Position numbers and translations under genes: made by a program. A stretch of 64,000 nt of DNA from a virus (lineage: Duplodnaviria > Caudoviricetes): positions 64,001 to 128,000 of the IMG/VR virus record IMGVR_UViG_3300028591_000074; one strand, 5' to 3'. Below the pieces are notes generated by a model that ran no database searches, was not told the origin of the DNA, and saw only the letters and a list, made by a program, of their open reading frames with translations. Below are positions 2,900 to 48,586 of this stretch, piece by piece. The first letter of the stretch is position 1, and every line of letters begins with the position of its first letter.

Positions 2900-3292
2900 C
2901 TAATTACTTAATGAATCATATAATTCCTGAGTTTCACATCTATCGTGGATTTGATATCCATTATGTTTTCTACCATCGTACATAGGATCTATGATTTTAT
3001 ATCCATCATCAATATAATCCTGTAATGCAAAATAAGTATCTACTGGACCATAATATGGCGCATAGATTGGATTTGATCGAATATACTTTTGAAACTTGCA
3101 CGGTATATAAACAGGATCGTCAAAAACGCCATATAAAACTATATAACCTCTGAAGGAATCAGATTCTACAGGATATTCTTTATAGTTTCTTGCTTCCCAA
3201 TCAATTTGCTCCCACAGATCGATGTCTTCCTGTGACCATCCATCAAATTCCTTATACATTGAACTTTTAATATATCTTTTCATAATAGACAT
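2900..3292 (-). CDS. Acidic hypothetical protein with MKRYIKSS leader
   Basis: ORF with SD; leader shared with neighbouring genes. Confidence 0.7.
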   Translation of the reverse strand: MSIMKRYIKSSMYKEFDGWSQEDIDLWEQIDWEARNYKEYPVESDSFRGYIVLYGVFDDPVYIPCKFQKYIRSNPIYAPYYGPVDTYFALQDYIDDGYKIIDPMYDGRKHNGYQIHDRCETQELYDSLSN

Positions 3293-3349
3293 CTCACTCC
3301 TATCTTGTTACATGTATATGTAATTCCATTATATGCATGTGAATCTTAA

Positions 3350-3556
3350 TTACCTAATAAGTTCCCCATCAACATAGTTTTCATCAGTAATTCCCCAATA
3401 TTCCAGAAGTTCACCACAACTATCCTGCCAGTTCCCAAGTTTCTCAATACACTCTTGTTCGGAATCTCCAGAAGCTAGACGAGTTCCGCCATTTGCATAT
3501 TTACCGCAGAAATAGTACGGAAATAAAAGTTCTGATGATTTAATATATCTTTTCAT
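3350..3556 (-). CDS. Small acidic protein with MKRYIKSS leader
   Basis: ORF with SD; identical leader. Confidence 0.7.
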   Translation of the reverse strand: MKRYIKSSELLFPYYFCGKYANGGTRLASGDSEQECIEKLGNWQDSCGELLEYWGITDENYVDGELIR

Positions 3557-3594
3557 AATAAATTCCTCACTATCTATCTTGATTAAAAACTACA

Positions 3595-3987
3595 TTATGG
3601 TGAATTAACTCCACCCTTCTGTTTAGTTCTCTTATCACCTGTCAGTTTTGCAAACGTATATTTTCCACGGATGTATTGCCAGAAAAAATGTCCTTTGGAT
3701 GGACTCGTATGCCACTTCTGATATATCTTTGTGGGAACGTCATAAAAAACATACACATCCCCGGGTCCACCCTTTCTCCCTTTAAATTGCACATATACAT
3801 CACCAACCCTATCTTGATTTCCTTTGACATTGATGTTATATGCCCAAATATTAGAAGATTTAACACGAACCATATTCTTCGTAATATCTCTGGAAGAAAT
3901 GGCAGCGGTGATAACTTCCCTACGATCCGTAGGGTGCATACACATTTGTATAATTGTTGTTGGAATTGTTCTGTGTATAATACGCAT
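3595..3987 (-). CDS. KTSC-domain protein
   Basis: VKSSNI...VYVQF...YVFYDVP...SPSKGHFFWQYIRGKY matches the KTSC pattern. Confidence 0.75.
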   Translation of the reverse strand: MRIIHRTIPTTIIQMCMHPTDRREVITAAISSRDITKNMVRVKSSNIWAYNINVKGNQDRVGDVYVQFKGRKGGPGDVYVFYDVPTKIYQKWHTSPSKGHFFWQYIRGKYTFAKLTGDKRTKQKGGVNSP

Positions 3988-4019
3988 TTAAATAAAACCC
4001 CATCTAAAGATAGTCTTAC

Positions 4020-4262
4020 TTATAGATAAGGTTTTAATTCTTTTCGATATTTCTTAGAATACTTTTTGAGTATAGCAGATACAATTTCTGTATTCGCTTG
4101 TGATTTTCCACAGGAGTATGAGATGTACCAATCCTTTGGAAGTAAGTAATCCGCAAGAAATTGAATCGCAGTATCACTATCCATCCCTGGTGGAAATATG
4201 TTATTAGAATCCTGATTTTTATTTAACCAGTCGGTAAAAGATGTAGTGTCTATATCTTTCAT
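4020..4262 (-). CDS. Hypothetical protein
   Basis: ORF with GGAGG SD. Confidence 0.65.
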   Translation of the reverse strand: MKDIDTTSFTDWLNKNQDSNNIFPPGMDSDTAIQFLADYLLPKDWYISYSCGKSQANTEIVSAILKKYSKKYRKELKPYL

Positions 4263-4290
4263 AGCAACACCTCCTGTAATAAGTATAAAA

Positions 4291-4371
4291 TGCGGATAGA
4301 GGGACTCGAACCCTCACGAGTTTCCCCAATAGATCCTAGGTCTATCATGTCTTCCGTTCCACCATATCCGT
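4291..4371 (-). tRNA. tRNA-Leu (anticodon TAG)
   Basis: Cloverleaf with ATAGA-CC TAG GA-TCTAT anticodon arm, variable arm and GGTTCGAGTCC T-arm; 1:72 mismatch. Confidence 0.8.
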
Positions 4372-4378
4372 GATTATA

Positions 4379-4807
4379 TTACATACCGTACTCAAAAGCA
4401 TCTATTTCAGGATTTCCTGTAATTTCTGCGATATGGTAATGATGATCTACAACAATATCGTATCTACTACTATATAGTTCAAATGCATCAATTATCTTCT
4501 TCAAAGTATCTAAATCTTTTGAAACAGTTTTGCTACAAACAATTTCGTAACACATAGTCCTAATATTATAGACAACTCTACCACGTTCAATGGACTTGTA
4601 TCCCTTTGGTATTTGATCTCCTGCACCAAAGTCATTCATCAGTCTTCGCCATTCTGTAAGATGATTCTTAAATGCATCATAATGAATGAACGATCCGTCA
4701 TTATATCCATTGTCAAGTGATACTAAATCTGCAATCACTTCTGAATTGTATATCCACCATATACCTACATATCCGGAAGTCATACCACCTTTTATGTATC
4801 TCTTCAA
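4379..4807 (-). CDS. Hypothetical protein with (M)KRYIKGG leader, inserted among tRNAs
   Basis: ORF; leader resembles those of 2900 and 3350. Confidence 0.7.
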   Translation of the reverse strand: MKRYIKGGMTSGYVGIWWIYNSEVIADLVSLDNGYNDGSFIHYDAFKNHLTEWRRLMNDFGAGDQIPKGYKSIERGRVVYNIRTMCYEIVCSKTVSKDLDTLKKIIDAFELYSSRYDIVVDHHYHIAEITGNPEIDAFEYGM

Positions 4808-4828
4808 TGTACATCACCTACCTTTCTT

Positions 4829-4878
4829 CAGGATATTGAACGCTCATCCTGCGTGTCTGCCAATTTCACCATATCCGC
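4829..4878 (-). pseudogene. 5' fragment of a tRNA-Leu-like gene
   Basis: GCGGATATGGTGAAATTGGCAGACACGCAGGA...TCCTG with no T-arm following. Confidence 0.6.
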
Positions 4879-4889
4879 AAACATATGAA

Positions 4890-5211
4890 TAATCTCGCCT
4901 TACGCAAATCTACTTTACGCCTAGACACTGTTAGTTGGTCTGCGTAGCCACTCCTAAACCTATCCCCTCAATCGCTGTAATTTGAGATTATTCATCTGTT
5001 ACCTACATTATCTCCTGAGATTCATGCTGACAGTTCACTAAGAGGGTACAGACTCTCTATCTCAGTAACTTCCTGTAGGGTTTTCAGTAGTATCTGCAGC
5101 AAGCAATTAGCCCACCCATCTGTACTTACCCCGATTTATCGTATCGGTAGGATCGAATAACGTATCTACTGTGACTCCTTGGTATATATCGTTTCAACCT
5201 TGGCAGTAGAT
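4890..5211 (-). ncRNA. Candidate structured ncRNA between tRNAs
   Basis: No ORF of 60 aa or more, raised GC, several stems such as ATCTACTG/CAGTAGAT. Confidence 0.4.
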
Positions 5212-5213
5212 AA

Positions 5214-5286
5214 TCGGAAGGGTGAGAGTCGAACTCACGGCAACAGGTTTATAAGACCTGCCCCATCACCGCTTGGGTACCTTCCG
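5214..5286 (-). tRNA. tRNA-Ile (anticodon TAT)
   Basis: CGGAAGG/CCTTCCG acceptor, CAGGT-CT TAT AA-ACCTG anticodon arm, A73. Confidence 0.8.
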
Positions 5287-5295
5287 TGCAATGAT

Positions 5296-5631: not shown

Positions 5632-5669
5632 GCTCTTGCACTATTGATACATGTTTCTATCTGTATATA

Positions 5670-5698
5670 AGTATATACTATATTGATAAGATTGTCAA
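5670..5698 (-). promoter_or_regulatory. Sigma70 promoter
   Basis: TTGACA-N17-TATACT. Confidence 0.7.
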
Positions 5699-5760
5699 TA
5701 AAAATTTTAGTAGGATTTTTCTTTATGTTATATAAATTTAACTCCTCTTATACTTCAATT

Positions 5761-6240: not shown

Positions 6241-6247
6241 TCACTTT

Positions 6248-7549
6248 CTAGAAGAAACTTTCCTCATTCGGATTGGATAAAATCTTTTGCTTATTTTCGA
6301 CAAATTCACGGTCTGTTACATAACCGTCCTTATCAAAGTGATAATCAATTCCACGAATCTTTACTGTACGGTTTTTAGCAATCCATCCATGATCGTCCTT
6401 GAACCACCACTTACTTCCATCTTTATTCTTATGCCAGCTTGCCGGATATTGATAATCAAATCTACCTGTCTTACCAACATGCCAATAGCCCTTATCCGGC
6501 TTTTCTGGATGGTCATCATATATCCAACCGTCCTTTGCTAAACTACCATCAGCAAAACACCAGTACCAATGCCCATTTGAATGCTTTGTCCATCCAGTAG
6601 TCATCTTACCACTCTTATCAAAATGATACTTCTCTTTCTTCCAAGTGATCCACTTATTAGATACCATTGCACCATTCTTTCCGAAGTAGTACCAATCTTT
6701 CTTAATCTGATACCAGTAGGTAGCCATCTTTCCATTGGACTTCAGATAGTAGCGGTTTCCATCATCCTTCAACCAGCCTGTTTGCATTGTGCCATTCTTA
6801 TTGAAGTAGTACCACTCTTTATCAATCTTCTTCCAACCTGTTGCAAGTTTGCCATTGGCAAGATAGTAGCACCAAGTACCATCATAATTTTTAACCCATC
6901 CACGTTTTGTCATAAGTTCATAAACATCGTTACGAACATCTGTCATATCTTTTCCAATCAGGGATGGGAACCAATCGTAAATATCATCGTGATTTGATCC
7001 AAGTCCGAGTTTGTAGGAATCATAATGACACAAAATATTTGGTACGATTACACCATTCTTTTTATGTGTACCCTTAGGATCAATTTTGTATTTTTCGCAC
7101 AACCAAGCGGTGCATTTCACGGCTTCGTCATAAACTTTCTGAGCATATACTTTATCATTCTTCGCATCTTGACAGATTTCGAATTGAATCGCACAATCAT
7201 TTTCAGATCCATATTTTCCGGATCCACACCCCCATGGTCGCATATCCCACGGAAGAACCTGACACGTCAGCACATTTCCATCCTTGTCAACCCCAATGAA
7301 AGCATTCACACCGGCTTGTCTGTCAGAATGATTCCAATCATTCCCATTTGGGTTTTTGCCAATGATATTGATAATTTTCTGATAGTCCTTATCGGAAGTC
7401 AACGGTTGTACGTATCGTCTGATATTTCTGTTATTGCATCCCGTATCATGCCAGAGAACGGATTTAGGGTCATCCTTCATCCTATAGCTCTTTTTGTAGC
7501 AGGTAGAGTTTGTCATAATACATTTTAAATATTTCCAATCAATTGCCAT
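6248..7549 (-). CDS. Endolysin: N-acetylmuramoyl-L-alanine amidase plus cell-wall (choline-binding-type) repeats
   Basis: WHDTG...IQFEIC...LCHYDS...NHDD zinc-amidase motifs; C-terminal GW..WYYF..NG.M repeats. Confidence 0.9.
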   Translation of the reverse strand: MAIDWKYLKCIMTNSTCYKKSYRMKDDPKSVLWHDTGCNNRNIRRYVQPLTSDKDYQKIINIIGKNPNGNDWNHSDRQAGVNAFIGVDKDGNVLTCQVLPWDMRPWGCGSGKYGSENDCAIQFEICQDAKNDKVYAQKVYDEAVKCTAWLCEKYKIDPKGTHKKNGVIVPNILCHYDSYKLGLGSNHDDIYDWFPSLIGKDMTDVRNDVYELMTKRGWVKNYDGTWCYYLANGKLATGWKKIDKEWYYFNKNGTMQTGWLKDDGNRYYLKSNGKMATYWYQIKKDWYYFGKNGAMVSNKWITWKKEKYHFDKSGKMTTGWTKHSNGHWYWCFADGSLAKDGWIYDDHPEKPDKGYWHVGKTGRFDYQYPASWHKNKDGSKWWFKDDHGWIAKNRTVKIRGIDYHFDKDGYVTDREFVENKQKILSNPNEESFF

Positions 7550-7567
7550 AATAAATTACCTCCGACA

Positions 7568-10350: not shown

Positions 10351-11268
10351 TCACTTTCCACCAAATTCAGAAATTAACCATTTAATAACATTTTGAATAC
10401 ACGTCTTTTTATTTGTACTTGAAGTAGCAGATGCCAACATATCATCTGCATAGGCATTAAATGATATCTGACCATCATCTGTATAAATAATCAATTTTAT
10501 TTTATCTAACGTATCATAATCGTTACTATCCATCTGTACTGAGATTGATCCACCCCAATATTGTTTTGCGTATTCGGATAATGCTATATCTAAAATCTCA
10601 TCTATTTCATCAGCAATCTCAGAATAAAATTCTATATCATAGGGGGATATTGACCATTCCGGATTTGATAATTCTGTATGAATTGTACCATGGAACTTCG
10701 AACTTTTCAAAGTAGATAACTTCCCAAGTCTACGTTCCGCTGCTTTCTGAACAGATGGATCTTCATCCTGTACCAATTTTTCTAAAACATCTTTATCTGT
10801 TGTTTTTTCAGCCACAATCTTTCTAACCTCAGGAGATTCATCATCCGATGCTAAGCTAATCATATCTCTATCATTTACACGGTTTATAATATTGATACGA
10901 ACTTGTTCATCATCATCAAATAGCATATTTTCAAGAACAGTTTGATCTTGACATTTTGTAGAAACAATTCTACGTATTCTAACATCTTCATCTTGAGATA
11001 ATACATCCCAAACCTTTGGATCAGAAGTTACTCTTGCTACTGCCATACGGATCCTAGGATCATCATCTTGTGCAAGTCTGCGCCTATCAGATTCCTTTGT
11101 AGCAAGATTTCTTGCAGTTGCTTGACGAACTAATTTTGAATCATCATAAGAAAATCTAGAAAGTTTTGATCGGTCATTAGAACTTCTTGCAAGTTTAGCA
11201 CGTTCAAAACTATCCATATGAGCTGCATAAATCAATTTCTTCATCAACATATCCCCATTATGATACAT
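10351..11268 (-). CDS. HEAT/LRV-repeat protein with MKKLIYAA leader
   Basis: Repeated LxxDEDxxVR units. Confidence 0.7.
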   Translation of the reverse strand: MYHNGDMLMKKLIYAAHMDSFERAKLARSSNDRSKLSRFSYDDSKLVRQATARNLATKESDRRRLAQDDDPRIRMAVARVTSDPKVWDVLSQDEDVRIRRIVSTKCQDQTVLENMLFDDDEQVRINIINRVNDRDMISLASDDESPEVRKIVAEKTTDKDVLEKLVQDEDPSVQKAAERRLGKLSTLKSSKFHGTIHTELSNPEWSISPYDIEFYSEIADEIDEILDIALSEYAKQYWGGSISVQMDSNDYDTLDKIKLIIYTDDGQISFNAYADDMLASATSSTNKKTCIQNVIKWLISEFGGK

Positions 11269-18090: not shown

Positions 18091-19596
18091 TTACTCAACA
18101 GTTATAGCTTCATATCGTTCAGAGTTGATGACTTTCATCATCATCTCTACTGGTGTCATTCCGATACACTTCATCAGCTGCTTGAACGTTGTTGCTGAAC
18201 TACCAGATACGAGCTGAACACCTTTACGATCCTTATCAGCATGGAATACATCATGTCTTGAATTGACATTCCAGAATACTACGTTCGGGATCTTGTATCC
18301 TGCTTTCTTAAACTCGTGTCGCATCTCTTCGTAGAATGACCACTTATCCTTCCGATATCCCCAATCAGATGTTGCTTGATCAATCTCCATATCTGAAATC
18401 ACGATAATGGACTTAACCATATCCTCATCTGCAATATGATTCTTTACAGCAACATCAAGAATTGTCTGGAACGCAGATTCAAGATTTGTGGAACCACAGT
18501 AGCCATTACCAGATTTAACAACAGAACGGATTTTCTGAGCAAGTGTGTCACCCTTAATCTCAACGATATGAGATTCACTTGAGAATGGGATAAACATATT
18601 ATGGAAATCACCATGATTTCTTTCAGCGAAGTAAATTGCAAGTCCAATCGAATTCGCCATAGGAAGTCCATTATTGCATGTCATAGATCCGGAAAGATCA
18701 GATACAACAATTGCATTAGTGTTTTCTTCCACGTAATTCGGAAGCTGTCTCCACTGGGCTTCTACAGTATCATCATTACCTACAGAAATACCAAATCCCA
18801 TATGGCAGATTTTACGAATAAGATCATAAGGATATAGAGTAGATGAGTTGATCTTCTCTTCTCCAGTAAGTGCTTTTGCTGTGAACTCTTCGAATCTAAC
18901 TGTATCATGACGCGTAAAAGCATTTCTGTAGATCATCATGGCTCTGGATGGAACTGCTGAATACTTAATCTTATCCCATTCTCCGGCAGACATGAGACTT
19001 TCAACAACACCAATCTGCTTACGAAGTTTACGAAGAATTCTCTTGAAATTGTAAACAGGATATCCAAGTTTCTGTGCAGTAAGAATACCAAGTTTTCTTG
19101 TATTCTCCGATGATGCATCCGGTGTCTTGATCCATTTAGCGAGAAGAGATACTGCATTATCTTTATGAAGATTCTGTACATCCTCTTCAAACTGATCCTT
19201 CATCACTTTCCACATATCATCTTCAAGTGGTGTTCCAATAAGAGAATACAGATCATCATATCTTCCATATACGCCAATCAGATCAATGTTTGGTCTGATG
19301 GATTCCGGATGATATTTAGCAAGATACTTGATCAAGTCTCTGAAGACTTTACGTTCACCACAGCCTTCTCGGATGTCACGGCTATAGAAAAGTATCTTAG
19401 TTGCAAGCAACGGATCTTCTGCATATGCTTCTTCAAACAATCGCTGAACATCGACTTCATCTCTTGAACGAAGTGCTCCGATTGTTCCGAAAAGATCGAG
19501 ACATGCATCGCCGGAAGTATTCTTTGCTCTTGCACCATTCTCAGTAAAAGTTTTAGTAGCTTCGTTTCTCATTGCATCTGAAAGTTTCATTTGCAT
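18091..19596 (-). CDS. DUF2828-family, Ro60/TROVE-like protein (helical repeats plus vWA with MIDAS)
   Basis: TENGA, RDIREGCGER, SLLAKW, VPSRAM, LYPYDL, DLSGSM (DxSxS), STNL, ISDME and FWNV motifs. Confidence 0.85.
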   Translation of the reverse strand: MQMKLSDAMRNEATKTFTENGARAKNTSGDACLDLFGTIGALRSRDEVDVQRLFEEAYAEDPLLATKILFYSRDIREGCGERKVFRDLIKYLAKYHPESIRPNIDLIGVYGRYDDLYSLIGTPLEDDMWKVMKDQFEEDVQNLHKDNAVSLLAKWIKTPDASSENTRKLGILTAQKLGYPVYNFKRILRKLRKQIGVVESLMSAGEWDKIKYSAVPSRAMMIYRNAFTRHDTVRFEEFTAKALTGEEKINSSTLYPYDLIRKICHMGFGISVGNDDTVEAQWRQLPNYVEENTNAIVVSDLSGSMTCNNGLPMANSIGLAIYFAERNHGDFHNMFIPFSSESHIVEIKGDTLAQKIRSVVKSGNGYCGSTNLESAFQTILDVAVKNHIADEDMVKSIIVISDMEIDQATSDWGYRKDKWSFYEEMRHEFKKAGYKIPNVVFWNVNSRHDVFHADKDRKGVQLVSGSSATTFKQLMKCIGMTPVEMMMKVINSERYEAITVE

Positions 19597-26714: not shown

Positions 26715-27965
26715 TTATGTTACATTATCTAACCAATATATCTTTGAATATTTCCAAAGTAGCTTACACTTTTTAGCATTTACTTTCTTACAATGCTTTG
26801 TTAGACTTTGGAAATTCAATGCATTTAATTCTGGATAAAGAGCTGTTACATAACCTCTATGTGTTTCTCCATTCCTAAACGTATATTCAACTAAATCTCT
26901 ATGCTTTATTCCAAGTACATTATCTGTTTTTGCTTTACTCTGTCTACGCATAGGTTTAATAGTCCATTCTTTTACTTCCGTAGTATCCGGTTTCAAATCT
27001 GTAATACAAATTGCATCATTTGAATGAGATTTTTCTATATCCCAGTCAATACGTTTATTTGATGTATCACCACCAGAAGTTAAATGCAAGATGCCCAATT
27101 CTGATAATTGCTCTCTTAACCAATGTTTTCCTATCATTACATGACTTGCGTAGTTAAGGTTTTTGGTATCAGAAGAATTGAGCAGATCAAAATAGTGCTG
27201 CATATATTGTTCTTCTTTGCCTTCGGTCTTTTGATGGCATTTTTTGCAAAGACTTATCAAATTCCCTAACGTATTAGAGCCATTCCTTCTGCGTGGGTTT
27301 ATATGATGTACTTCTAATTTTGTATTTGTCTTTCCGCATTCCATACATTTACATCCATCACGCAGAATTACAGCTTTACGTATGTTCTCATCTAAACGAT
27401 TTGATTTTTGATACTGCCAATTATAAGGCTTATAGTCATCCGTTAAGGCCCTTATATCTATTGCAACATCTTCAAGCCAATAATTTGTAGTGTTAATCCA
27501 CTTGTTTAAGTGATATATTACTCGCATAGTGGCTTGTCGTTTTTGTAAGATACTTGGTGCTATTCTGCCTTTTCGCATAGATGAAGATCGGTTATTAAAC
27601 CTTGCTTTACGATGTCTCTTTTGTTGTCTGTGGTATCTGCGATAACTTTTACGAACATCCATAAGATACTTTATGTCATTACGCTGCTCTATTGTTCCTT
27701 TGAAAAGCACTTTATTTTTGGTCTGACATTTTTGTACAAGGGCAATACCCGTATGTAAACCTCCATCATCAATGCCACATCTTACTTCATCTTTACACAA
27801 TTCATCATCTGAAATTACTCGGTTAAGCTGTATCACCATTGGGTATTTTGCTACAAGTTTGGCTTTACCCTTGCGTATCATATACCACGCTTTTGTTTCT
27901 TTCGTTGGACTTAACGGTTTACCGTTAGCATCCAACACAAATGAATAATTTGTCATTTCTGACAC
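26715..27965 (-). CDS. iscB: IscB RNA-guided endonuclease (RRXRR/RuvC/HNH)
   Basis: PLSP N-terminal motif, GIDDG RuvC-I, Arg-rich bridge helix, LEDV, HH...N...CKKCH HNH, SHSNDA RuvC-III. Confidence 0.92.
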
Positions 27966-31591: not shown

Positions 31592-33979
31592 TTATTGTTC
31601 ACCAAATAGATTGAATGTCTTTGGTTTCGTTTTATCTGGTTTACTTAATTTTACAGAATTATCATCTTCAATACTAATATCCGCAGTCATAGCATAGTCA
31701 ATTCTCGCTTTAGAAATCTCAAGATATTCTTCCGACAAATCAATACCAATATATTTATAATTTTTATGTTTTGTACGGTTTTCTAACATAATAGCCTTTC
31801 CGGTACTACCGGAACCGTTGAATGGGTCTAAAATGGTACTTCCTTTGGGCGATACAAGACGAACTAAGTAAGTCATAAGCGAAGTCGGCTTAACTGTAGG
31901 ATGTGTATTCTTTCGTGCTTTTGAACTTCTATTAAATGGAACATCCGCAGAATAACAATCTGGGTTTCTATCACAATCGATTCTTGGGTCAAATACATCC
32001 AACCCTTCATCCCTATCTAACTTACTTGCTTTAGCACAATAGAAGTATCTTGATGCTGAACCACCATTATCGTCATAACCTACCATCTCCCCATGTTTCT
32101 GAGTAATATTTCCCCAACCGTCGTATTTATCAACACTTGAATAGATTCTATGTGGCTTACATCCATCGCTGTCCGGAAATCCACCGCATACTTCATCAAA
32201 ATCAGAATCATCATATGTTAATATTACATTAGCAGGGAAACGGCCATTTGGATTTTGAACAAATGTATTCTCTGTACCATCTTGGAACATACCCAATGAT
32301 TTACCTGTACGATCATCACCGGAGTTTGTTCTAAGTACACCGCCATGTACTAATGTATCATCTGTTGGCACTCTACATTCATCAATATTTATCCCACCAA
32401 CACCATACTTTAATACATTGTCAGTTGTACTACCTTCACATGGTTTACGTGCGACTATCACAGGTTCGAATGCCGGTTTGAGCGCAGTACCCCACCCATT
32501 CCAACGCTTACCTTCTTCTGTTGTATAGTTTACTTTAGTTGTATATCCTTCGCAGCTATCATCATAATTACTACTACGGCATCCTTGATCGAATTGTCGT
32601 TTATTCATCCCCCAACTACCGGATTCAGATTTCTCACCATCAAGATTCTTAAACTCTTGCGTGTTTGCACTACCTGTGGTCAGTTTTGCTTCAACCGCTT
32701 TGCCTATATTCATTGATTTTGGGAATCCACTATTCCCGGAAATAAACGCTTTGCCATTCCGTCTAACCACAAATGCCCCTGTTTCTGTTTGAAGGCAGTA
32801 CACCATCCCTTTATATGGAATATTTGGTTTACAATGTCTTGATTCAGTTTCAGTGCTATTGTGAGCAACATTGAATTCTACACATGACTTAGTTCCATTA
32901 CTTATATATGCACGATAGTTCAAAGATATGCATAATGCTTGAAATATATCAAGCCGTTCTTTATTCGTACTCCAAAAAACCCTAGCATACTGACCATTTC
33001 TATAACTACCATCACCGTCCATAAGACCTTCAAGTAATGCTTTACGTGAACTTATGTCCCAATTTAATACATCCCAAGTCAATACCCTATCATAATAGTT
33101 AGATAATAGTTTATCTGCTAATTCACCAGTAACGTAAAACGTATGTTCATCATTATGTTTTGGGTTGTTGGATTTCTTTATATATTCACTATATTTAATA
33201 TTATGTTCATCGAACCAATTACGGAGTTTATTAAGCGTCTTTGGTTTACTTTGGCTAAACATACATGCTTTTCCATCTTGGTGTCTCCAAGCATCTGTTA
33301 ACCACCATCCTATTATATAAGCATCATCCTCATGGACTGATCCATCAAGTTCACCTGCTAATGGATATGATACAATCCAACTTTTCTTAAAATCTTCTGC
33401 AAGCACAAATTCATAAGGAGTAAACTGTTTCCTGCGTTTCTTGATCTTCGCAACAACCCTATGATTCTTAGTAACTAATTGAGATACATGCCTATTCTCA
33501 AACAAACATAATTCATCATCAATATCATACTCAAAGTAATTCAAAGGGTGTATCCAAGATAATTTGTTCGTATCCTTATCCCATTGCAAAATTTTTTCAG
33601 TATGGTCAAGATCATAAAAATATTTCCAACCGCTATCAGTTAATACCTGTGTATCTTCAGAATAACACCCCAACAGCCACATAATAGTATCTCTAATTTC
33701 AAATCCAGCATCTTCGATTGCACATGCAATTCTGTGGAACGTCCTCGAACCGCCGAATGATAAAATATATCCACCCGGCTTTAATACTTTCAGACATTTC
33801 TCCCAGGTCTCTTTCTGAAATGCAATACCACTTCTGTCCCAACCCTTATTCATAAAATTTAATTCATACGGAGGATCAGTTACTATTGCATCAATAGAAT
33901 TCTCCGGTATTACATCAAGCATATCTAACATGCTACCTTCGTATAATTTATATTGATCTGTTTCTGTGTAAAGTTTCAT
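31592..33979 (-). CDS. Beta-class amino DNA methyltransferase containing an intein
   Basis: TDPPY, HPTVKP and LDPFNGSGST motifs. Confidence 0.9.
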   Translation of the reverse strand: MKLYTETDQYKLYEGSMLDMLDVIPENSIDAIVTDPPYELNFMNKGWDRSGIAFQKETWEKCLKVLKPGGYILSFGGSRTFHRIACAIEDAGFEIRDTIMWLLGCYSEDTQVLTDSGWKYFYDLDHTEKILQWDKDTNKLSWIHPLNYFEYDIDDELCLFENRHVSQLVTKNHRVVAKIKKRRKQFTPYEFVLAEDFKKSWIVSYPLAGELDGSVHEDDAYIIGWWLTDAWRHQDGKACMFSQSKPKTLNKLRNWFDEHNIKYSEYIKKSNNPKHNDEHTFYVTGELADKLLSNYYDRVLTWDVLNWDISSRKALLEGLMDGDGSYRNGQYARVFWSTNKERLDIFQALCISLNYRAYISNGTKSCVEFNVAHNSTETESRHCKPNIPYKGMVYCLQTETGAFVVRRNGKAFISGNSGFPKSMNIGKAVEAKLTTGSANTQEFKNLDGEKSESGSWGMNKRQFDQGCRSSNYDDSCEGYTTKVNYTTEEGKRWNGWGTALKPAFEPVIVARKPCEGSTTDNVLKYGVGGINIDECRVPTDDTLVHGGVLRTNSGDDRTGKSLGMFQDGTENTFVQNPNGRFPANVILTYDDSDFDEVCGGFPDSDGCKPHRIYSSVDKYDGWGNITQKHGEMVGYDDNGGSASRYFYCAKASKLDRDEGLDVFDPRIDCDRNPDCYSADVPFNRSSKARKNTHPTVKPTSLMTYLVRLVSPKGSTILDPFNGSGSTGKAIMLENRTKHKNYKYIGIDLSEEYLEISKARIDYAMTADISIEDDNSVKLSKPDKTKPKTFNLFGEQ
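32732..33667 (-). mobile_element. Intein with LAGLIDADG homing endonuclease (312 aa)
   Basis: G|CYSEDTQVLT ... VYCLQTETGAFVVRRNGKAFISGN|S; LLEGLMDGDG motif. Confidence 0.9.
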
Positions 33980-33990: not shown

Positions 33991-34765
33991 TCAATCAAAC
34001 AATTTATATGGTGGATGTGTATTGTCTATCCTATTTTTGGCTATCTCAAAGTAATCTTTGTCAAGTTCTATACCTATGAAGTTTCTATACAGATTTTTAC
34101 AAGCTACTCCGGTAGTTCCTGATCCCATAAACGGATCTAATACTACATCATCAATATATGTATTCATTTTTATACATCTTTTTGGAAGTTCTTCTGGAAA
34201 TGGGGCAGGATGTCTAAGTATTTGCAAATTATTTTCAGGAGGAAACTCCCAAAGCGCATACGCATATTTGATAAATTTTGATTTTGTAATATCAGTTTTA
34301 CCATCATGTAGTAATTTAGTTTCTTTGTTTGAAAAAAAATAAGTATATGTTCAAACGGTGTAGGGTAACTTGGACTACTTGGGGACATAAAGCTACCCCA
34401 TGCAGTCCTTGCGCTTGTTGTCATCTTGTTCCATATTATGTGTGTAATCGGTATGTATTTAAGATCAACCATTAGTCTTATTATATCGCTACTCGTTGGT
34501 ATAGCACCATTTTTCCATCCCCTATATTTATACAAACTCTACCATCGTCCGACAATTTATTTTTTAATTTACAGAAAATTTCTTTAATCCGTCTTATATA
34601 ACCATAATGATTCTTGTTATCAACATAGCAATTATAACCAAATGTATTATATTTGTTATTACCTAAGTCAACATTGTATGGTGGGCTTGTTATTACGCAG
34701 TTTACTAAGTTATCTTGGATATTATCTACAAGATCAAAACAATCACCTTGCCACAACTCAATCAT
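33991..34765 (-). pseudogene. DNA methyltransferase broken by two homopolymer frameshifts
   Basis: TSPPY, IIWNK and HPAPFP/LDPFMGSGTT motifs lie in three frames; shifts at an A5 run (about 34512) and a T8 run (34332-34339). Confidence 0.8.
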
Positions 34766-34903
34766 TTAACCATAACCCACTTTCCTGTGCCATAATCTCT
34801 AAGACCATAATACGGTGGAGAAGTTACACACATATTTACAGATTCAGAATCTAATGTTATCAATACATCTAAACAATCACCTTGAAGTATTTTCCAGTGA
34901 TAT
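34763..34903 (-). pseudogene. N-terminal remnant of a further methyltransferase
   Basis: Translates WKILQGDCLDVL...CVTSPPYYGLRDYG then stops; no in-frame start. Confidence 0.75.
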
Positions 34904-34922
34904 AATCACAAAATTGACTAAA

Positions 34923-35723
34923 CTATTCAAATAAATTATAATTTGGATAAGTGCTATCCAATCTACTTTTTGCAATATTGCAGTATTCTTCACTTACATC
35001 AAATCCAATATAGTTTCTATGAAGAAGTTTTGCTTCTATAGCAGTTGTTCCAGATCCTAAAAATGGATCAAGCACTAAATCACCACTGTTACTCCATGTT
35101 ATTATATGATCATGTGCAAGTTTTGATGGAAACACAGCAGGATGCCCTGTACGATTATTTTTTTCAGATGGCACATCCCAAACATTAAACCTATTGCCAA
35201 ATTCTCCACATATAGTATTAGTCAAACTCTCAGAACGCCTAACTGTATCCCCATTAGTAGTACGATATGTACCATGTACCTTTGTACCATACCACTTATT
35301 ACGCCTATCAGATATTAGATTAACTGTTTTCGGTTTACCGTTACTAAAAACAAACATGTACTCAAAATTTTGATAATACCGTGTTGCATCTGGTAAGGAT
35401 CCAGAATCCTTAACCCATATCATAGTATCATGAAGATTAAGTCCAATATCTCTGAAATAGATGGCTTGTTTAAAACTTGTACATGTCTCACTTCCGTTTA
35501 CTGTACTATCATTAACTATCCAAACAATAACTCCACCTTGTTTCAGAACACGATATAGTTGTTCCGCAATGGTTTCGAAATCAAATGAATATCCATTATA
35601 TCGACGTAAGTTATCATATGGTGGAGAAGTTACAACAAGATCAATACAATCAGAGGGTAATTGTTTTAATAATTCCGCAGAATCTCCGCATCGTACATAG
35701 TTCATTTCTAACATAGACATCAC
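34923..35723 (-). CDS. N4/N6 DNA methyltransferase
   Basis: TSPPY, HPAVFP and LDPFLGSGTT motifs. Confidence 0.9.
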   Translation of the reverse strand: MMSMLEMNYVRCGDSAELLKQLPSDCIDLVVTSPPYDNLRRYNGYSFDFETIAEQLYRVLKQGGVIVWIVNDSTVNGSETCTSFKQAIYFRDIGLNLHDTMIWVKDSGSLPDATRYYQNFEYMFVFSNGKPKTVNLISDRRNKWYGTKVHGTYRTTNGDTVRRSESLTNTICGEFGNRFNVWDVPSEKNNRTGHPAVFPSKLAHDHIITWSNSGDLVLDPFLGSGTTAIEAKLLHRNYIGFDVSEEYCNIAKSRLDSTYPNYNLFE

Positions 35724-37824: not shown

Positions 37825-38997
37825 TTATTCACTGATCGGTTCAAGTTTCATATTCTTAATTGATGATTTTCTGAAGTCTAATTTGTATTCTACATCACTT
37901 GTATCATACTCTGTATTTACTTGACCATCTTCTTCACTGTATTCATCTACTGATGTTACACCGGAAATTGTGTAAACTAAAGTTATATCACCGGATAATT
38001 TGTAATTTCCAGTAGGTGCATCAATCTCAAATGCAATCACATCTAAAGTGTCATTTAATATTATATCAGATGGAACTTCACGAATTTGTCCTATGTTGGA
38101 AGATAAATTAGAATCAACATCATTCAGCCAATCTGTATCTTTAAACTGAACATCTGTTCCCCATTCTGTATAGATTTCTACATCAGATAATGTGAATTCA
38201 ATTTCGTCTGTGATTCCATCTTCAATCACAAGATCTGCATTTTCTTCTGGTGGATCAATCGGTTGTTCGCTTTCCGCAGTAATATCTACATTCACTTTAG
38301 CAGGAATACCACAAGTATTTGTAGCAGCGGCAATATTATCATCATATACCCATGCTTCGATAATTCCGCTTGTTACAGGTTCAAAGTAAGAATCTGCATC
38401 ATACTTTTGAACAATTGGATCCAATGCTTCACACAGATCCATTAATCCACCATAGGAAAGTTCTGCACGGACTTGAATCTTAGTTGCATTATATTCTTCA
38501 GAATATTCCTTAGAAATATGCAGATAATCATCAACATCTGACTCTGAAAAACCATATTCCTGAATCATGCACATCCTTGCGGTGGCTTGAACTTCTTCAA
38601 CAACAGAATCTAAATCGGCATCAAAATTTATTGATTTCTCACACTCAATTGATTTGGAAGAATCTATAGAATCAGCATCCTTCTGAATCTGTTCATTGAA
38701 GTCTTTGGCAATCGGTTCAACATATTTAAACAAATCAGATGGCTTTTTAATCTTTCTAAAATCAATCTTTGTGTCATTAGAATAGTTATACCAATCCTTT
38801 GTTTCGATTTCTATATGGATTACGTTATCTTCAATCCAACTATCAATTACATGTGTATCCGGTGGTAATTGATCTTCAACTAAATTGCATAGTTCCACTA
38901 ATTCTTCCTTTGTGAAGAATTCATCGTAGTCAATCCCATATAGACCTCTGGATGTATATACTTTCTTTTGTATCTTCATATCAAATCTGCTCCTCAA
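37825..38997 (-). CDS. Highly acidic multi-module protein with basic leader
   Basis: MKIQKKVYTS start; internal IDSS, IAAA and ITAE linkers. Confidence 0.6.
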   Translation of the reverse strand: MRSRFDMKIQKKVYTSRGLYGIDYDEFFTKEELVELCNLVEDQLPPDTHVIDSWIEDNVIHIEIETKDWYNYSNDTKIDFRKIKKPSDLFKYVEPIAKDFNEQIQKDADSIDSSKSIECEKSINFDADLDSVVEEVQATARMCMIQEYGFSESDVDDYLHISKEYSEEYNATKIQVRAELSYGGLMDLCEALDPIVQKYDADSYFEPVTSGIIEAWVYDDNIAAATNTCGIPAKVNVDITAESEQPIDPPEENADLVIEDGITDEIEFTLSDVEIYTEWGTDVQFKDTDWLNDVDSNLSSNIGQIREVPSDIILNDTLDVIAFEIDAPTGNYKLSGDITLVYTISGVTSVDEYSEEDGQVNTEYDTSDVEYKLDFRKSSIKNMKLEPISE

Positions 38998-39975
38998 TTA
39001 GTCCACATTCACCGGACTTTGCATAGAATCTATAATCTGCTTGATTGCATCATGTTGTCTTTGTTCCTTTAATCTAATCACGTGCATATAGCAATTGTGA
39101 CCACAAAAGTACAAAGTATTGTTCTTATAATTCAACTTAAAAATATTACAAGGTCTGCGTGTATGTTTTCTACCGCAAACACAGCAAGTATATATCTTCA
39201 TATCACTCGATAGCCTTTACTACCCACTTAATATATTGATCGGTTTCTTTCTCACACAGTGGACAGATACCAGAAATCTTATCAACTTCCTGATCAGATT
39301 CAATCATAGCAGAAATGAAAATTCCATGACACTTATCACATTCAGCAATCAGATGACCATCAATATTGTTGTCAACCTCAATATCAACATCATCTTCCTG
39401 AACTTCATCCAGAGTGTCCTGCATATCTTCAATGTTATCTGCCATTTCATCTAATGTGTCGTCAAACGCATCATCTTCGACATCTGCATCATCAACAGGC
39501 ATATCAAGATCTTCGAATTCATCTTCTCCGGCAGCCATAATTGGATCACTTGCAGCATCAACGCTACGTGTTCTTTTTTCAATTCTCATTGTATAAATCT
39601 CCTCCGTGCCTCTATTCTATTTCTAAGTTCATTTGCCACTGTATTTATATCATCATGGTTCCAGAACTTAACTACATCACCATCTACAAAGTAGTCCCAA
39701 TCAAATTCTATGTGTTGCCTTGGATCATATCCGAAACTGATAGTGGAGTAGACAGATACATCAAATATCCCATCTTCACCATCCTCCAATTCCAATCGTA
39801 ACCCAAGTAACTCTGCATCCAAATCTTCATCCATATTAACGATTTGCAACATATAATCTATATCAGATTTAGCGGAATTTTGAACATGTAGTGGTATTGT
39901 AGTCATCATAATTGAAAATCTCCAATCATTTATACTTAATAGTATAAAAGGTTTGGAAAGAAATTGCCGGAGCAT
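38998..39975 (-). CDS. Small proteins: 38998-39201 (Cys-rich), 39203-39589 (acidic plus Zn ribbon, with leader), 39586-about 39910
   Basis: ORFs downstream of the class-B motif at 39943. Confidence 0.6.
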
Positions 39976-43835: not shown

Positions 43836-45600
43836 TTACATATTCTTTTCTGCCCACTTATCAAGGAACTCAGATGTTTTCATAACTTGACCGGATAAAC
43901 CATTTTCAGATTGTTCTTTATAATCGTTATCCATATCTCTATATGTTTCATAGAAAGTAACAACATCGTTATCCCAAATAATTACATACAGGTTGTTGAA
44001 TAACTTCTCAGTAAGTTCCTTTGTCATACCTTTAGGTGCTTGCTCTTTGATTTCATAGTCATTTAGAGCCTTAGTAGTAAGAAGTTTATCCGTAAGGAAG
44101 TACTCACCACCATCGGCTTCAAGTGTATAATACACTTGTGCACCCTTCGGAATTGATCCGATACCAACACCATGTCTTGTAAAATACCAATAGCAGTCAT
44201 ACGGTTGATTGTCATACAGATATTCAGATGCAGTAATAGTTCTCTTTGTAATCTTCATTCAATATACCTACCTATTCTAAGTCTAAGAAATCATCCATTT
44301 CCCCGATAATATATTTCATATCATCTAATGGATTATACTCTAAATCATCTCTTGGTACTTCATACACCGTAATGTCAGAGTATCCAAGATCATCTGTAGC
44401 GGTTAATGTGAAGTACAAATTCTTCTCATCAGAATCAAATTGTACTATAATATCTTCACGTAGTTCTACAATCTTATCAATCACCGCATCACGAAGTTCA
44501 AGTATATATGGATCATTTTCCTCATCTTCATCAGGTCGTTCAATATCAATCACTTCCATATTAGATGGGGAATCTTCTACCAATTCTTCATCAGCAGCTA
44601 TTTTTGTAGATGCAGCAAGTGGATGATTAAATGCATCCAATGGTATTTCAAGATGTTCAATCATAAGATGCTTTGCTTCATCCATAGATACGCCAAGTTC
44701 ATCAGCAATTGCTTTCTGTTCATGTTCAAGTTCTGTAGCCCAACTACCGGATAATGGTGTATCACCTGTATATCTATCGGATATTTCCCAAAGTTTATCC
44801 CAATCAATTTTATGATTGTCTGATGCAGTGATGGTTCTATGAGATATTTTCATACCATCACCGCCTAATCAAAATAATTCGGATCAATATCCGTTACACT
44901 GACCGGAAACTCACCATTGAAATCCTCAAAGTACTCATCTGGATCTAATCGAACTTCTCCACCAGTCTTTGTATCGAAGATCAGTGTATAATCACCATTA
45001 GATAGGAACTCATGTGCCATATCTGTAGCTTCTGACCAATCATCCGTTTCAAAACTATCGGCAAGTCCTACATATCTGGCATCATAATATCCTTCTACAT
45101 GGAATCTACCTTCTGCATCATCCGTAAATCCTTCATAGGAATTAAACCATTCCAGTGCTTCTGATTCGTTATCAAATTCCATATCATATTCACCATCTTC
45201 CGGCTTATAGATATCAGAATCACCGAATACTGTGACATAGAAATCACCATCTTCATTATAATACAGACTGTAATCTGTATAAAAACCATCAGAATCTTGA
45301 ACAGATTTCTTATCTACAAGTTCCCATGAAGAACCATCATATTCATCTGGTTCTCTCCAATCATCATAAGAATTCAGTTTCATAATTCACCACCTAAACT
45401 TGCTCTGTAATTGCAGAAATTACGGATTGAAGGGTATCGGAAAGGGCTTGTGCCTGTTCCATAGCAATACCATCATTACCATCACGATGCAACTTCTCAA
45501 TACCTGCAATTGCATAATCAAAATCATCACCAATAGAATCAATCAGTTCTTTCAGTTGATCTTCTTTTGCACCATCTGCGGCATAAATAAATTTCTTCAT
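43836..45600 (-). CDS. Four acidic proteins (43836-44258, 44272-44853, 44865-45383, 45394-45600), three with the basic leader
   Basis: MKITKRTITAS, MKISHRTITAS and MKKFIYAA starts. Confidence 0.7.
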
Positions 45601-45601
45601 T

Positions 45602-47437
45602 TTATTTTCCTCCGGCTAATAATAAGTCAAACAGTTCTGGGTTTCTACTTAAATCTATTCTACCATCTACGATATACTTTGATATGCCTGACTTAGTAGA
45701 TAGAATCTGCTCCACTTTATCGTCAATTGTGTCTTTTGCTACAAGAGTAAATATATTTACAGATTGCGTTGTTCCTGCCCGGTGGCAGCGATCTTCTGCC
45801 TGTTCCTTATCCGAAGGATTCCAAGGCACGTCATAGAAAATTACATTCCTTGCGACTGTAAAAGTATGTGCTGTACCTGCCGCACCAATGGTCCCAAGAA
45901 GAACTGTATAATTGGGATTTTCGATAAAGGTTTTCTTATGCTTTTCTCTATCCTGCGCAGACATTGTACCTGTAAATACACACGTCTTGTATTTCTTACT
46001 TATAAAAGTATATAAGGTTCGGAGTGGTTCTACCCAATTTGAGAATACAACTGTCTTTTCACCACGTTCGTGTGCCTCTTCAAGAAGTTCCAATAACCGT
46101 ACAAGCCTTGCATTTTTCTTAAGATAATCAGAGTCATTCGGACTAATTTCTGTATCAACCAATTCCGGTGAACCATTTACCTGACGAAGTTTAAGTAACT
46201 TAGTCATTGGATTTACTGCAAGCATAATTTCATCTTTATTATTGATGATATCATTTGCAACCTGTGTATAAAGTTTCCGCTGATACGGAGTATTTTCCAC
46301 ATACTCCGTATAATGAATCTTTGGTGGAAGATCTAACACATCATCTTTTAATCTACGAATCATATTGTGTTGAAGTATATTTTTAAGTCTTGGAATATTC
46401 CTATACCCAAGTACAACATGATCGCCAAAGCCGCCATAGATACAAAAATATTGACACCACTTATAATAACTTTCCACAGTATGTCCTTCACAAAGCCGAA
46501 GTGGTACAAATACATCCATAGGTTGCTTTGTAATTGGTGTACCTGTCATAGGTATCCACATACAGTTCTGCTTTGTATATTTCTTAATGCGAAGCAATTG
46601 CTTTCCCTGCTGAGATTTTGCAGACGCATTTTTATGGATTTCATCCAATGCAATCATATTTATCTCACCGGAATTGATTTTATTGATAATAGCATCTGCG
46701 ATTGCGTACTGCCTACCTTCTGTATATCTCAAGGCTTCTATATTCATTATAATAAAATATGGAAGTTCCTGTTCACAATCTTTACTATATTTTTTCCAAG
46801 TGATTAAATCTTTACATTTATCTTTACCTGTTGTATCAAACTTTACATCACCAGACTTCTTCAGTCGGCTACCAATAAGATATGGCTCGTATTCACCATT
46901 TGTATGTTTCCTGATTTCGTCCATCCAGTTATACTTAGCAGAATTTGTACAACATATAATTAGACAGTGCTTAAATCCATAATGTTCTTTATTATAAATC
47001 GCAAGATTTATAAGTTCTATGGATTTCCCACATCCCATCTCATCGGCCAGAAGAAACCCATTCAAGTTATCTGACTGTTCTCTTGCAATACACCACTTCA
47101 TAAAATCTAACTGATGGGAAAATGGCTTTGAACCTTCCTGAACGTAAAATGGAACATCTGTAAGATCAATATCCGGTATTTCAGTTGTCTTATCAATATC
47201 TGCGTTTTCATTGATATGTTCATCAGAAACAATATTGATAAGTGGTTCATACCTTGTACCTTTCAATTCATTTAAAAGAAAACCAAGATGTTCCTTTGGA
47301 ATTGTCCACATCTTAGCATTTGGCAGCCAGCATTTCCCAGGAACAGACTTAACAATATCAACAATCCCTGCATCATACGGAAATGATACTTCATAAACAT
47401 TATTGTTTTGCTTTATATTTATCATAGAAATCACCAC
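45602..47437 (-). CDS. SNF2-family helicase with HARP-like N-terminus
   Basis: LLADEMGCGKS, DEIH, TGTP, LRQ, WNP..EQAEDRCHR motifs. Confidence 0.9.
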   Translation of the reverse strand: MVISMINIKQNNNVYEVSFPYDAGIVDIVKSVPGKCWLPNAKMWTIPKEHLGFLLNELKGTRYEPLINIVSDEHINENADIDKTTEIPDIDLTDVPFYVQEGSKPFSHQLDFMKWCIAREQSDNLNGFLLADEMGCGKSIELINLAIYNKEHYGFKHCLIICCTNSAKYNWMDEIRKHTNGEYEPYLIGSRLKKSGDVKFDTTGKDKCKDLITWKKYSKDCEQELPYFIIMNIEALRYTEGRQYAIADAIINKINSGEINMIALDEIHKNASAKSQQGKQLLRIKKYTKQNCMWIPMTGTPITKQPMDVFVPLRLCEGHTVESYYKWCQYFCIYGGFGDHVVLGYRNIPRLKNILQHNMIRRLKDDVLDLPPKIHYTEYVENTPYQRKLYTQVANDIINNKDEIMLAVNPMTKLLKLRQVNGSPELVDTEISPNDSDYLKKNARLVRLLELLEEAHERGEKTVVFSNWVEPLRTLYTFISKKYKTCVFTGTMSAQDREKHKKTFIENPNYTVLLGTIGAAGTAHTFTVARNVIFYDVPWNPSDKEQAEDRCHRAGTTQSVNIFTLVAKDTIDDKVEQILSTKSGISKYIVDGRIDLSRNPELFDLLLAGGK

Positions 47438-47497
47438 CTAACAAAATAAATAGAATTACAGTATTTTCCTATATATAGTAACGATTCTGATAATCAA

Positions 47498-47526
47498 AAA
47501 AGTCCTGCATAAATATGCAGGACTTT
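47498..47526 (-). terminator. Rho-independent terminator
   Basis: aaagtcctgcat-aaat-atgcaggacttt followed by a U-tract. Confidence 0.7.
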
Positions 47527-47540
47527 GTATAGTTGCACAA

Positions 47541-48586
47541 TTAGATGTACTGTTCCAACAAATCAAAATCAATTGCGGCTTCCAAAACCTCTATAAATGT
47601 ATATCCTTCAGATTCCACCAAATCAGTAAGCACACGATCCACATTGATGTCAGCAACTTCATACTTAGATAAATTCCGCTTAATGATGTTATCTGTAATC
47701 GGTCTGATGAATCCATTATCTGCTAAAGTTTTAATCGGATAGTCAACCAATATATCCTCTACAAATTCAACAGGTTCGCCATCAATCGTAATCGGATTAT
47801 AATCTGTAATCAATAGATATAATGTTCCATCACCATCAATAAGACTTCCTTCGAATTCTTTCCCAATATTGAAAGTATCAAACCCATAATTGTCAAGTAA
47901 GTAGGACATTATAATGTCGTCTTTATAAAAATCTTTTAAATCCTTTAATGTTGTTTTATAGATATTTGTTGCCATATGATTTACCTCAAAAATATTTTAT
48001 ATTCATAGATAAGGTTGATTTTTATAAGGCGCTATTTAGTCATAATATCTATCCACCGAACAACTTCAGAATCTATATATTTAAACGCTTCTTCATAGGA
48101 ATTAAACTCTGTCGAGTTAACAATTATAGATTTTGGATATGCCTTAGGTATTGGTCTGCCATTCAATAAATTTAGTAACTTTTCGGATTCTTTTTCTTCT
48201 TTCTTATGTTTCTGTGACTCTTTAGAACGTCTAGGGTTATGGTTGGATATTCGCAATCGAAGTCTGATTTTGAATAAAGCATTTCCAGATTCATCACAGG
48301 CAAGAAAATTATAATATTTGGAATAATCAACAGATTTCGACTTATATACAAGAATCAATCCATAATAATCTTGTAGTAAGTCTTCAACTGCTTCGATAAA
48401 ATCTTCATAATCTGCAACCATCTGCTCAGATGGAATATCCCCCTTTATACCTGACATCAATTCACCGTCAGGTATATGGATCCCATGAAATTCTGATGCC
48501 GCAATATATGGTGCATATGGGTCAATTATACAATCAATATTGAATACATAAACACCATCAGAAATAAACTTTTTCATACTAATCAC
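47541..48586 (-). CDS. Two hypothetical proteins (47541-47975, 48032-48586)
   Basis: ORFs with SD. Confidence 0.6.

Follow-up and report, generated by a model that had tools for sequence, protein, structure and literature searches.

Short basic N-terminal leaders on unrelated proteins of a 253,527-bp virus genome as candidate signals for prohead loading and cleavage

Introduction

Why do proteins that have little else in common begin with the same few basic residues and the same small-residue ending? The question is raised by a 64,000-nucleotide stretch of DNA (the window), bases 64001-128000 of the 253,527-bp virus record IMGVR_UViG_3300028591_000074 (Duplodnaviria; Caudoviricetes), in which nine genes code for leaders such as MKRYIKS↓S (here and below the arrow shows the presumed cleavage site). 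A sequence-only reading had interpreted these leaders, ending in I-x-(A/S)-(A/S) on unrelated acidic proteins, as a portable signal resembling the capsid-targeting sequence (CTS) of phage T4, a leader of ~10 residues described as able to load green fluorescent protein (PMC9958956, PMC3012670). The explanation that we favour, and consider slightly better than evenly probable, is that they are T4 CTS-like propeptides that load proteins into the prohead and are clipped after Ala or Ser by a protease of the T4 gp21 type. The gene set consists of heuristic calls, 387 proteins genome-wide with 362 of them on the minus strand, and the G+C content of the genome is 33-40%. Positions refer to the window unless given as genome positions.

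A protein-level signal at N-termini

All nine N-termini of the sequence-only reading are present where it placed them, and all are on the minus strand. That list stands as a list of N-termini; as a class it mixes two types of leader and includes a few marginal members. Class 1 has the form M-K-(R/K/I/L)-Y-(I/V)-(K/R)-(A/S), followed by S, A or N, and is represented in the window by the genes at 2900, 3350 and perhaps 4379, with an MKK(L/F)IYA↓A form at 10351 and 45394. Class 2 has the form M-x-I-x-(K/H)-(R/K/T)-(T/I)..., ending in ITA↓S or similar. Six-frame translation gives six matches to the class 2 pattern. One is the major capsid protein (MAIKKTIHRATPSSRKITA↓S), four are proteins of the window (43836, 44272, 39203 and the KTSC protein at 3595-3987), and the last is an internal Met not followed by the motif. 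In sequence, the class 2 leader copies the start of the capsid protein of the phage itself.

The leaders are far more frequent than expected by chance, as assessed with six-frame, reversed-genome, triplet-shuffled (n=20) and N-terminal shuffle (n=2000) controls. The strict class 1 pattern [KR][KR][YFL][IV][KY][ASG][ASGN] has 17 matches in the six-frame genome, all on the coding strand and 16 of them directly after a start codon; with this pattern the reversed genome gives one match and the 20 triplet-shuffled genomes a mean of 0.5 (maximum 3). The DNA pattern ATGAARNNNTAYRTNAAR is found 21 times on the coding strand and not at all on the other. In 24 of the 387 proteins the shorter motif [IV][KTY][AS][ASGNT] begins at one of the first 13 positions, where 5.5 are expected from its internal rate, and composition-keeping shuffles of the N-termini yield a mean of 4.8 with a maximum of 13 in 2000. 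When the wider P2 set is allowed ([IV]-x-[AS]-small in the first 15 positions), there are 42 of 387 against 11.1 expected, 21 of them at position 5. The enrichment over background that the sequence-only reading needed is therefore present with either form of the motif.

The codons used for Lys, Arg, Tyr, Ile and Ser in the leaders vary synonymously, with Ser switching between AGT and TCN; because of this variation we attribute the conservation of the leader to selection at the protein level, and a signal at the DNA or RNA level can be ruled out. The N-terminal signal is thus real, strongly non-random and acts at the level of protein. The proteins behind the leaders (tagged proteins) are also diverse and acidic, as had been proposed. 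Clustering by BLAST of 32 proteins with a basic leader without Asp or Glu, the capsid protein and protease included, gives 27 clusters, and the mean net charge per residue is -0.092 for tagged proteins and -0.046 for the proteome.

Leaders in related genomes

Four relatives (G001, G002, G004 and G005) were compared by whole contig. Matches to a DNA pattern coding for M-K-x-Y-(I/V)-K number 11, 8, 5, 21 and 0 in five relatives; all 45 are on the matching strand of the record and none on the other, and the controls gave two altogether. N-terminal motif counts in three relatives are 47/299 (G001), 38/240 and 34/203, where 8-10 are expected. The form of the leader differs between genomes: G001 has a five-residue version, MKIYA↓S, on a large paralogue family, and G002 has longer leaders such as MK-x-FTK-x-P...(I/V)KA↓S. 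Taken together, 117 tagged proteins of five genomes fall into 92 clusters, 78 of which are singletons. Orthologues of the tagged window proteins keep a leader while its class and length are swapped. A further example is a ferritin-like mini-protein (genome 215392-215658; Pfam Ferritin 6e-4, below cutoff) with 246 database relatives; among the matches listed, which are 59-97% identical, 105 of 120 keep the strict leader and two are without one. The string MKRYIK was not found in a full-text literature search.

Few of the tagged proteins belong to recognisable families. Searches of Pfam and PHROGs with 22 tag-bearing proteins of this genome identified only a HEAT/LRV protein (10351) and a KTSC protein (3595), together with sub-threshold ferritin/rubrerythrin and zinc-ribbon matches. 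Of 78 tagged proteins from relatives, six could be assigned to a Pfam family, two each to LRR_5 and LRV and one each to phosphoribosyltransferase and ART-PolyVal. The last of these is a 143-residue ADP-ribosyltransferase of G002 (153586-154017, minus strand; L129:13586-14017) with the leader MKRYINS↓S, which parallels T4 Alt, a packaged and processed enzyme. A role of the cargo as DNA mimics or in anti-defence, as was proposed earlier, is possible.

The capsid protein and its protease

The sequence-only reading pointed to the capsid and scaffold propeptides as places where the same motif should recur, and the two proteins concerned are indeed the richest in it. The major capsid protein is of the gp23 type (genome 167311-168849; Pfam Gp23 1.6e-16, PHROG 138), and directly upstream of its gene is that of a 507-residue 'head maturation protease' (genome 168897-170420; PHROG 207, 3.4e-21) whose C-terminal part is a predicted scaffold. 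Among the 387 proteins the protease-scaffold ranks first and the capsid protein second for motif density, and four of the five copies in the capsid protein are within its first 95 residues. These two proteins are likewise at or near the top for motif density in the four relatives.

A survey of 50 related IMG/VR loci with 58-81% capsid identity yielded 43 distinct capsid N-termini and 45 distinct proteases. In all 43 capsid N-termini an invariant ATNT is immediately preceded by [IV]-[TMN]-[AG]. The propeptides contain a median of four motifs in ~68 residues and their sequence otherwise drifts freely. Seventeen of the 43 are without any Glu or Asp, and because of this a rule of cleavage after Glu could not process them. 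The expected L-x-E site of the capsid protein of Listeria phage LIS04, ALLE↓TT, aligns with AVTA↓AT here; a MAFFT alignment of the T4 gp23 N-terminal region with the capsid protein was too unreliable to place FLTE↓A.

In the proteases the motif is confined almost entirely to one half of the protein, with a single copy in 6383 residues of catalytic domain and 212 copies in 13786 residues of the C-terminal part, and [IVL]-A-A-[STA] is at the junction of the two in 45 of 45. An AlphaFold (AF2) model of residues 1-205 of the protease has a predicted local distance difference test (pLDDT) value of 71.6, and Foldseek matches it to T4 gp21 (5jbl) with probability 1.00 and a template-modelling (TM) score of 0.62 normalised to the target; matches of the model to herpesvirus proteases are weak (E 0.3-1.1). 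H66, S121 and D144 are conserved without exception in 20 relatives and occupy the same alignment columns as the His, Ser and Asp of T4 gp21. Searching the PDB by sequence with the full-length protease yielded chance coiled-coil matches only. By modelled fold and catalytic columns, then, the protease appears to be of the T4 gp21 type.

The predicted cleavage sites of the protease also line up with those of T4. T4 gp21 is reported to activate by removing its own first nine residues, and gp23 to lose 65 (PMC9958956); the T4 sequences at these cuts are LLIE↓T in gp21 and FLTE↓A in gp23. TIKA↓T of the protease aligns with LLIE↓T, and AIAA↓S aligns with EITE↓S, where the catalytic domain of T4 gp21 ends; the latter is a presumed cut judging by its motif alone. 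The T4- and phiKZ-type proteases described as characterised in PMC5694885 all cut C-terminal to Glu, with the motifs L/I-x-E, S/A/G-x-E and A-x-E. Our literature searches on cleavage motifs of prohead proteases returned Glu-specific cases only, and others may still be in print.

Comparison with T4 and the herpesviruses

The closest known system is the T4 CTS of IPII and IPIII (also IPI and Alt), with which the leaders described here share several properties. Both are short N-terminal leaders on unrelated, fast-evolving, non-essential proteins, both end in the motif cut by a gp21-type protease that the phage itself encodes (a prediction here), and in both phages there is a gp23-type capsid protein with an N-terminal propeptide. 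The N-terminus of T4 IPII and IPIII, MKTYQEFIAE↓A, has M-K-x-Y in common with MKRYIKA↓S here, followed in each case by I-x-(P1), and T4 gp23 begins with M-T-I-K-T-K, which may be compared with the class 2 leader. There are also clear differences. The presumed P1 residue here is Ala or Ser whereas in T4 it is Glu, and the leaders are without Glu. They are basic, 5-16 residues long, and of two or more classes, one of them mimicking the capsid N-terminus. T4 has a handful of tagged proteins, whereas this genome has ~30 and a relative up to 47; the bodies are acidic, and the protease is fused to the scaffold.

A similar mixture of likeness and difference is seen with the proteases themselves. T4 gp21, phiKZ gp175 and SPN3US gp245 (MEROPS S77/S80) share with the protease the fold (5jbl), the His/Ser/Asp columns, an N-terminal self-cleavage site at the same aligned position and a C-terminal extension with further sites, the last two being predictions here. 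However, the characterised enzymes cut after Glu, a residue missing from the 17 capsid propeptides noted above. Herpesvirus assemblin (pUL26/pUL80a, MEROPS S21), which has the same fold, resembles the protease in that a scaffold is fused to its C-terminus; it has a release site where the two domains meet, and one is predicted at that place here. The pseudorabies virus (PrV) protease is reported to cut after Ala at YLQA-T and VQA-S (PMC4498786), and a human cytomegalovirus (HCMV) protease substrate is given as ...Asn-Ala-Ser-Ser... (PMC13486704). Cleavage in these herpesvirus examples is after Ala and before Ser or Thr, and the equivalents here are Y-[IV]-K-[AS]↓S and I-T-A↓S, with the Tyr at P4 matching the PrV release site. 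Assemblin differs in having a Ser-His-His triad, as described for the herpesvirus enzymes, whereas the third column here is Asp, as in T4. The HCMV release site is Tyr-Val-Lys-Ala↓Ser. The herpesvirus-like substrate code could be either ancestral or convergent.

A proposed CTS-like role and the evidence against it

A CTS-like role is the best reading of the leaders because the same motif fills the capsid propeptide and the scaffold, and because known or expected Glu cut sites of T4 and LIS04 align with Ala sites here. The leader would bring an otherwise unrelated protein into the assembling prohead, the T4 gp21-type protease would clip it after the Ala or Ser of (I/V)-x-(A/S)↓(S/A/N/G/T), and the cargo would travel with the DNA into the host. 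We infer all three of these steps, the cutting at the motif, the leader-driven loading and the journey with the DNA. The proposal of a T4 CTS-like tag made in the sequence-only reading thus survives as to a protease-read cleavage signal, for which the capsid and scaffold motif and the Glu-to-Ala site alignments provide support, and as to the CTS-like role as the best reading; its association with a 'class-B' upstream motif was not confirmed (see below).

Several observations weigh against this role. About 30 cargo species (8% of genes, and up to 47 of 299 in G001) are many for one head, and the tagged genes are interspersed with genes for replication and other non-structural functions. Upstream k-mers before the tagged genes include none that is clearly enriched, and no promoter signal tying these genes to the late genes was found. 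T4 internal proteins are basic, unlike the acidic tagged proteins here. In G005 there are 9 of 221 N-terminal matches with 6.4 expected, and so no N-terminal enrichment, despite the same motifs in its capsid protein and protease. P1 is Thr or Gly in some orthologues, and the core motif has a background of 0.001-0.002 per residue, such that single sites are uncertain. The match of the protease to Pfam Peptidase_S77 (PF03420) is below cutoff (23.1 bits with a gathering threshold of 27; E 5.9e-5). Finally, megablast of the genome against cultured phages gave no match, and the closest capsid proteins of cultured phages are ≤27% identical.

Alternative explanations

The main rival is cleavage without packaging, with the leader acting as a pro-sequence that is cut in the cytoplasm by a protease of the phage or another one, for example to time activation. 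A common motif argues for a common protease only and not for a location, and the large number of tagged proteins and the placement of their genes outside the head module fit well with such a scheme, as does a preprint reporting phage proteases that act on a host immune protein (PMC12991175). However, T4 gp21 is described as becoming active after the prohead is complete (PMC9958956), the copying of the capsid protein N-terminus by class 2 leaders suggests co-assembly, and the M-K start is fixed beyond P4-P1′, suggesting something more than a cut site. We regard cleavage without packaging as unlikely, if deserving of serious attention.

It could also be that the leader is not cleaved and is simply a favoured N-terminal sequence, such as an A/U-rich start for translation, a degron or an interaction tag, with its likeness to the head motif a coincidence of composition. 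The MK- starts and the A/T-rich codons AAA, AGA, TAT and ATT do fit with a genome of this G+C content, and the core motif is short. This is difficult to reconcile with the 24 matches observed where composition-keeping shuffles give 4.8 (maximum 13), with Ser and Arg codons that change family while the residues stay the same, with the occurrence of the motif at positions homologous to T4 cut sites, and with the common end motif of leaders that differ in length; we consider it quite unlikely.

Common ancestry or cassette shuffling, in which paralogy or recombination at a common 5′ end has spread a peptide without function, has some basis in that part of the tagged set lies within a duplication of the genome ends (72-98% identity) and in the existence of paralogue families (nine in G004, and the MKIYA family in G001). 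But the 27 clusters from 32 proteins here, the 78 singletons in 92 clusters over five genomes, a leader DNA that is not conserved, and the 105 of 120 listed ferritin-like homologues that keep the leader at 59-97% identity make it very improbable. Least probable of all, and barely to be entertained, is a sorting signal for some other destination (secretion, the membrane or another phage-made compartment): the tag is N-terminal, basic and portable, but by inspection no hydrophobic core follows the basic residues, and such a signal would not account for the likeness to the motif of capsid and scaffold.

Two further candidates were not retained. A signal peptide or lipoprotein signal was ruled out by inspection, there being no hydrophobic stretch, and host processing of the Prp/ribosomal protein L27 type, which needs Phe at P1, was set aside.

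Tagged genes of the window

All of the tagged genes described here are transcribed leftwards (minus strand). The gene at 2900..3283 codes for a 127-residue acidic orphan with the leader MKRYIKS↓S (leader codons 3263-3283). In the listed open reading frame (ORF), 2900-3292, the tag begins at an internal ATG; the true start is 3283 and the listed frame adds MSIM. Its G002 orthologue keeps a leader, MKRYIRA↓A, despite an extra ~50-residue domain. Next to it at 3350..3556 is a 68-residue orphan, also with MKRYIKS↓S, for which there is no Pfam or PHROG family at threshold. The 130-residue KTSC-domain protein (3595..3987) has a long class 2 leader, MRIIHRTIPTT...REVITA↓A, and the internal ITAA reported earlier for this protein is confirmed, with REVITA↓A preceding the Pfam KTSC domain in ORF 3595-3987. 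Its orthologues, present in four of four relatives, have other N-terminal extensions, some ending in KITA or IQA↓A. A match from our own scan, 'MVRVKSS' at 3595-3873, which was absent from the earlier list, falls inside the KTSC domain. The 142-residue protein at 4379..4807 has a TTG start and the leader (M)KRYIKG↓G, and is a marginal member with Gly-Gly at the presumed cut; its orthologues begin with MKRYIRT↓V and MKLYVRT↓A. The HEAT/LRV-repeat protein (10351..11244; 297 residues, MKKLIYA↓A) is another instance in which the tag is at an internal ATG, the true start being 11244 in ORF 10351-11268, and tagged LRV-repeat proteins are also found in G002.

The remaining members are further to the right. 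A 384-residue orphan at 37825..38979 is marginal, its leader MKIQKKVYT↓S having Thr at the presumed P1. At 39203..39589 is a very acidic protein of 128 residues that has a Cys-rich motif at its C-terminus and the class 2 leader MRIEKRTRSVDAA↓SDPIMA↓A, whose orthologues have the N-termini MNLKHTKIMA↓A, MKIVRHDSSAINA↓S and MKLSRHHRAIFA↓A. Two orphans with class 2 leaders follow, one of 140 residues (43836..44258; MKITKRTITA↓S), which resembles the capsid protein N-terminus, and one of 193 residues with a net charge of -40 (44272..44853; MKISHRTITA↓S), for which an Atlas search gave no usable match. A 68-residue acidic protein at 45394..45600 (MKKFIYA↓A) is the tagged body with the widest occurrence among the genomes: BLASTP at E ≤1e-4 finds it in three of four relatives (G001, G002 and G005) with the leaders MKRVIMS↓A, ...GIKA↓S and MKRLSKVTA↓A, and its single-linkage cluster includes tagged proteins of G002, G004 and G005. 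The 181-residue protein at 48032..48577 has a degenerate leader, MKKFISDG, and its G004 orthologue starts with MKRYIKS↓N. Searches by tblastn with two cargo proteins of the window, including that at 37825, found no match in cultured phages.

Outside the window, a 319-residue frame at genome 217635-218594 (minus strand; L009:14635-15594) has a whole leader in its interior, ..NIKA↓SSNIRRDSNMKKYVKA↓S.., together with a third site, KYAVKS↓S. Either two genes are read through as one here, or the frame codes for a small polyprotein that is cut into modules. The adjoining gene (genome 216672-217607) has an internal DKYVNS↓S.

The sequence-only reading had most of the tagged genes following a 'class-B' motif. 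That motif was left undefined, and the best candidate for it, AACCTTTWATA, is upstream of only one of the nine listed genes; the claim was not confirmed. AACCTTTWATA itself (motif B) is promoter-like and is found ~40-55 nt before starts, those of some structural and some tagged genes included (e.g. 39953, 43098 and 13012). A second promoter-like motif (motif A), AAATCGTTATAAT, is present on the coding strand in ~25 well-formed copies that precede starts by 25-75 nt (e.g. 37806, 42625 and 51467).

Other features of the genome

The T4-like head genes, the portal, terminase and sheath genes among them, are all outside the window. An endolysin gene at 6248-7549 suggests that the host is Gram-positive because its product has an Amidase_2 domain and choline-binding repeats. 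The ends of the record (genome 1-16000 and 236021-252609) are diverged copies with 72-98% identity and the same gene order, and carry genes for a 741-residue Pnkp/RNA-ligase, a Thg1-like guanylyltransferase and a nucleotidyltransferase as well as several tagged genes; the arrangement is that of a long and old terminal duplication, not of a clean terminal repeat.

Several other genes deserve mention. A 795-residue N6/N4 DNA methylase (31592-33979, minus strand) is split by a LAGLIDADG-type domain that probably represents an inserted homing endonuclease or an intein, and there are more methylase fragments at 33991-35720. A 501-residue protein (18091-19596, minus strand) combines DUF2828 and DUF7788 (E 1e-41 to 1e-43), a pair that is uncommon in phage. 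Several genes of the 'transposase' family PHROG 506, IS605/TnpB-like to judge from the name, are spread over the genome (L005:1653-2915, L006:5955-7289, L009:9519-11129 and L009:18672-19922), with a fifth place at 26715-27956 in the window, a region outside the coverage of the PHROG scan. Five or six adjoining small genes at 61212-63410 (minus strand) code for proteins with the N-terminus M-(R/Q/H)-(I/L)-V-I-D-I-P-E; these are paralogues with a common N-terminus of their own, unrelated to the leaders described above. A G001 protein starts with MKIVIDIPEKYLNS.

Implications

New here are the two leader classes, the leader that mimics the capsid protein, the extent of the cargo set and its turnover, and the swapping of leaders among orthologues. 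A broader and decidedly tentative picture, which we hold to be doubtful as a whole, is of an uncultured clade of large phages of Gram-positive hosts that fill their heads by means of a transplantable address of five to seven residues, 'MK + (Y)-I/V-K-A↓S'. Each phage would carry 30-45 fast-turnover proteins (ADP-ribosyltransferase, HEAT/LRV, LRR and ferritin-like among them) to be injected with the DNA, and a T4-family protease would have moved from Glu to a herpesvirus-like Tyr-phi-Lys-Ala↓Ser rule, linking two branches of the assemblin fold by their substrate code.

If the tags work as proposed, they would provide a sequence rule by which the arsenal of injected proteins of uncultured phages could be read from their genomes. 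They would also be candidates for a very short tag with which foreign proteins could be loaded into the capsids of phages of Gram-positive hosts, and the protease would be a natural case of P1 specificity re-aimed from Glu to Ala or Ser within the gp21/assemblin fold.

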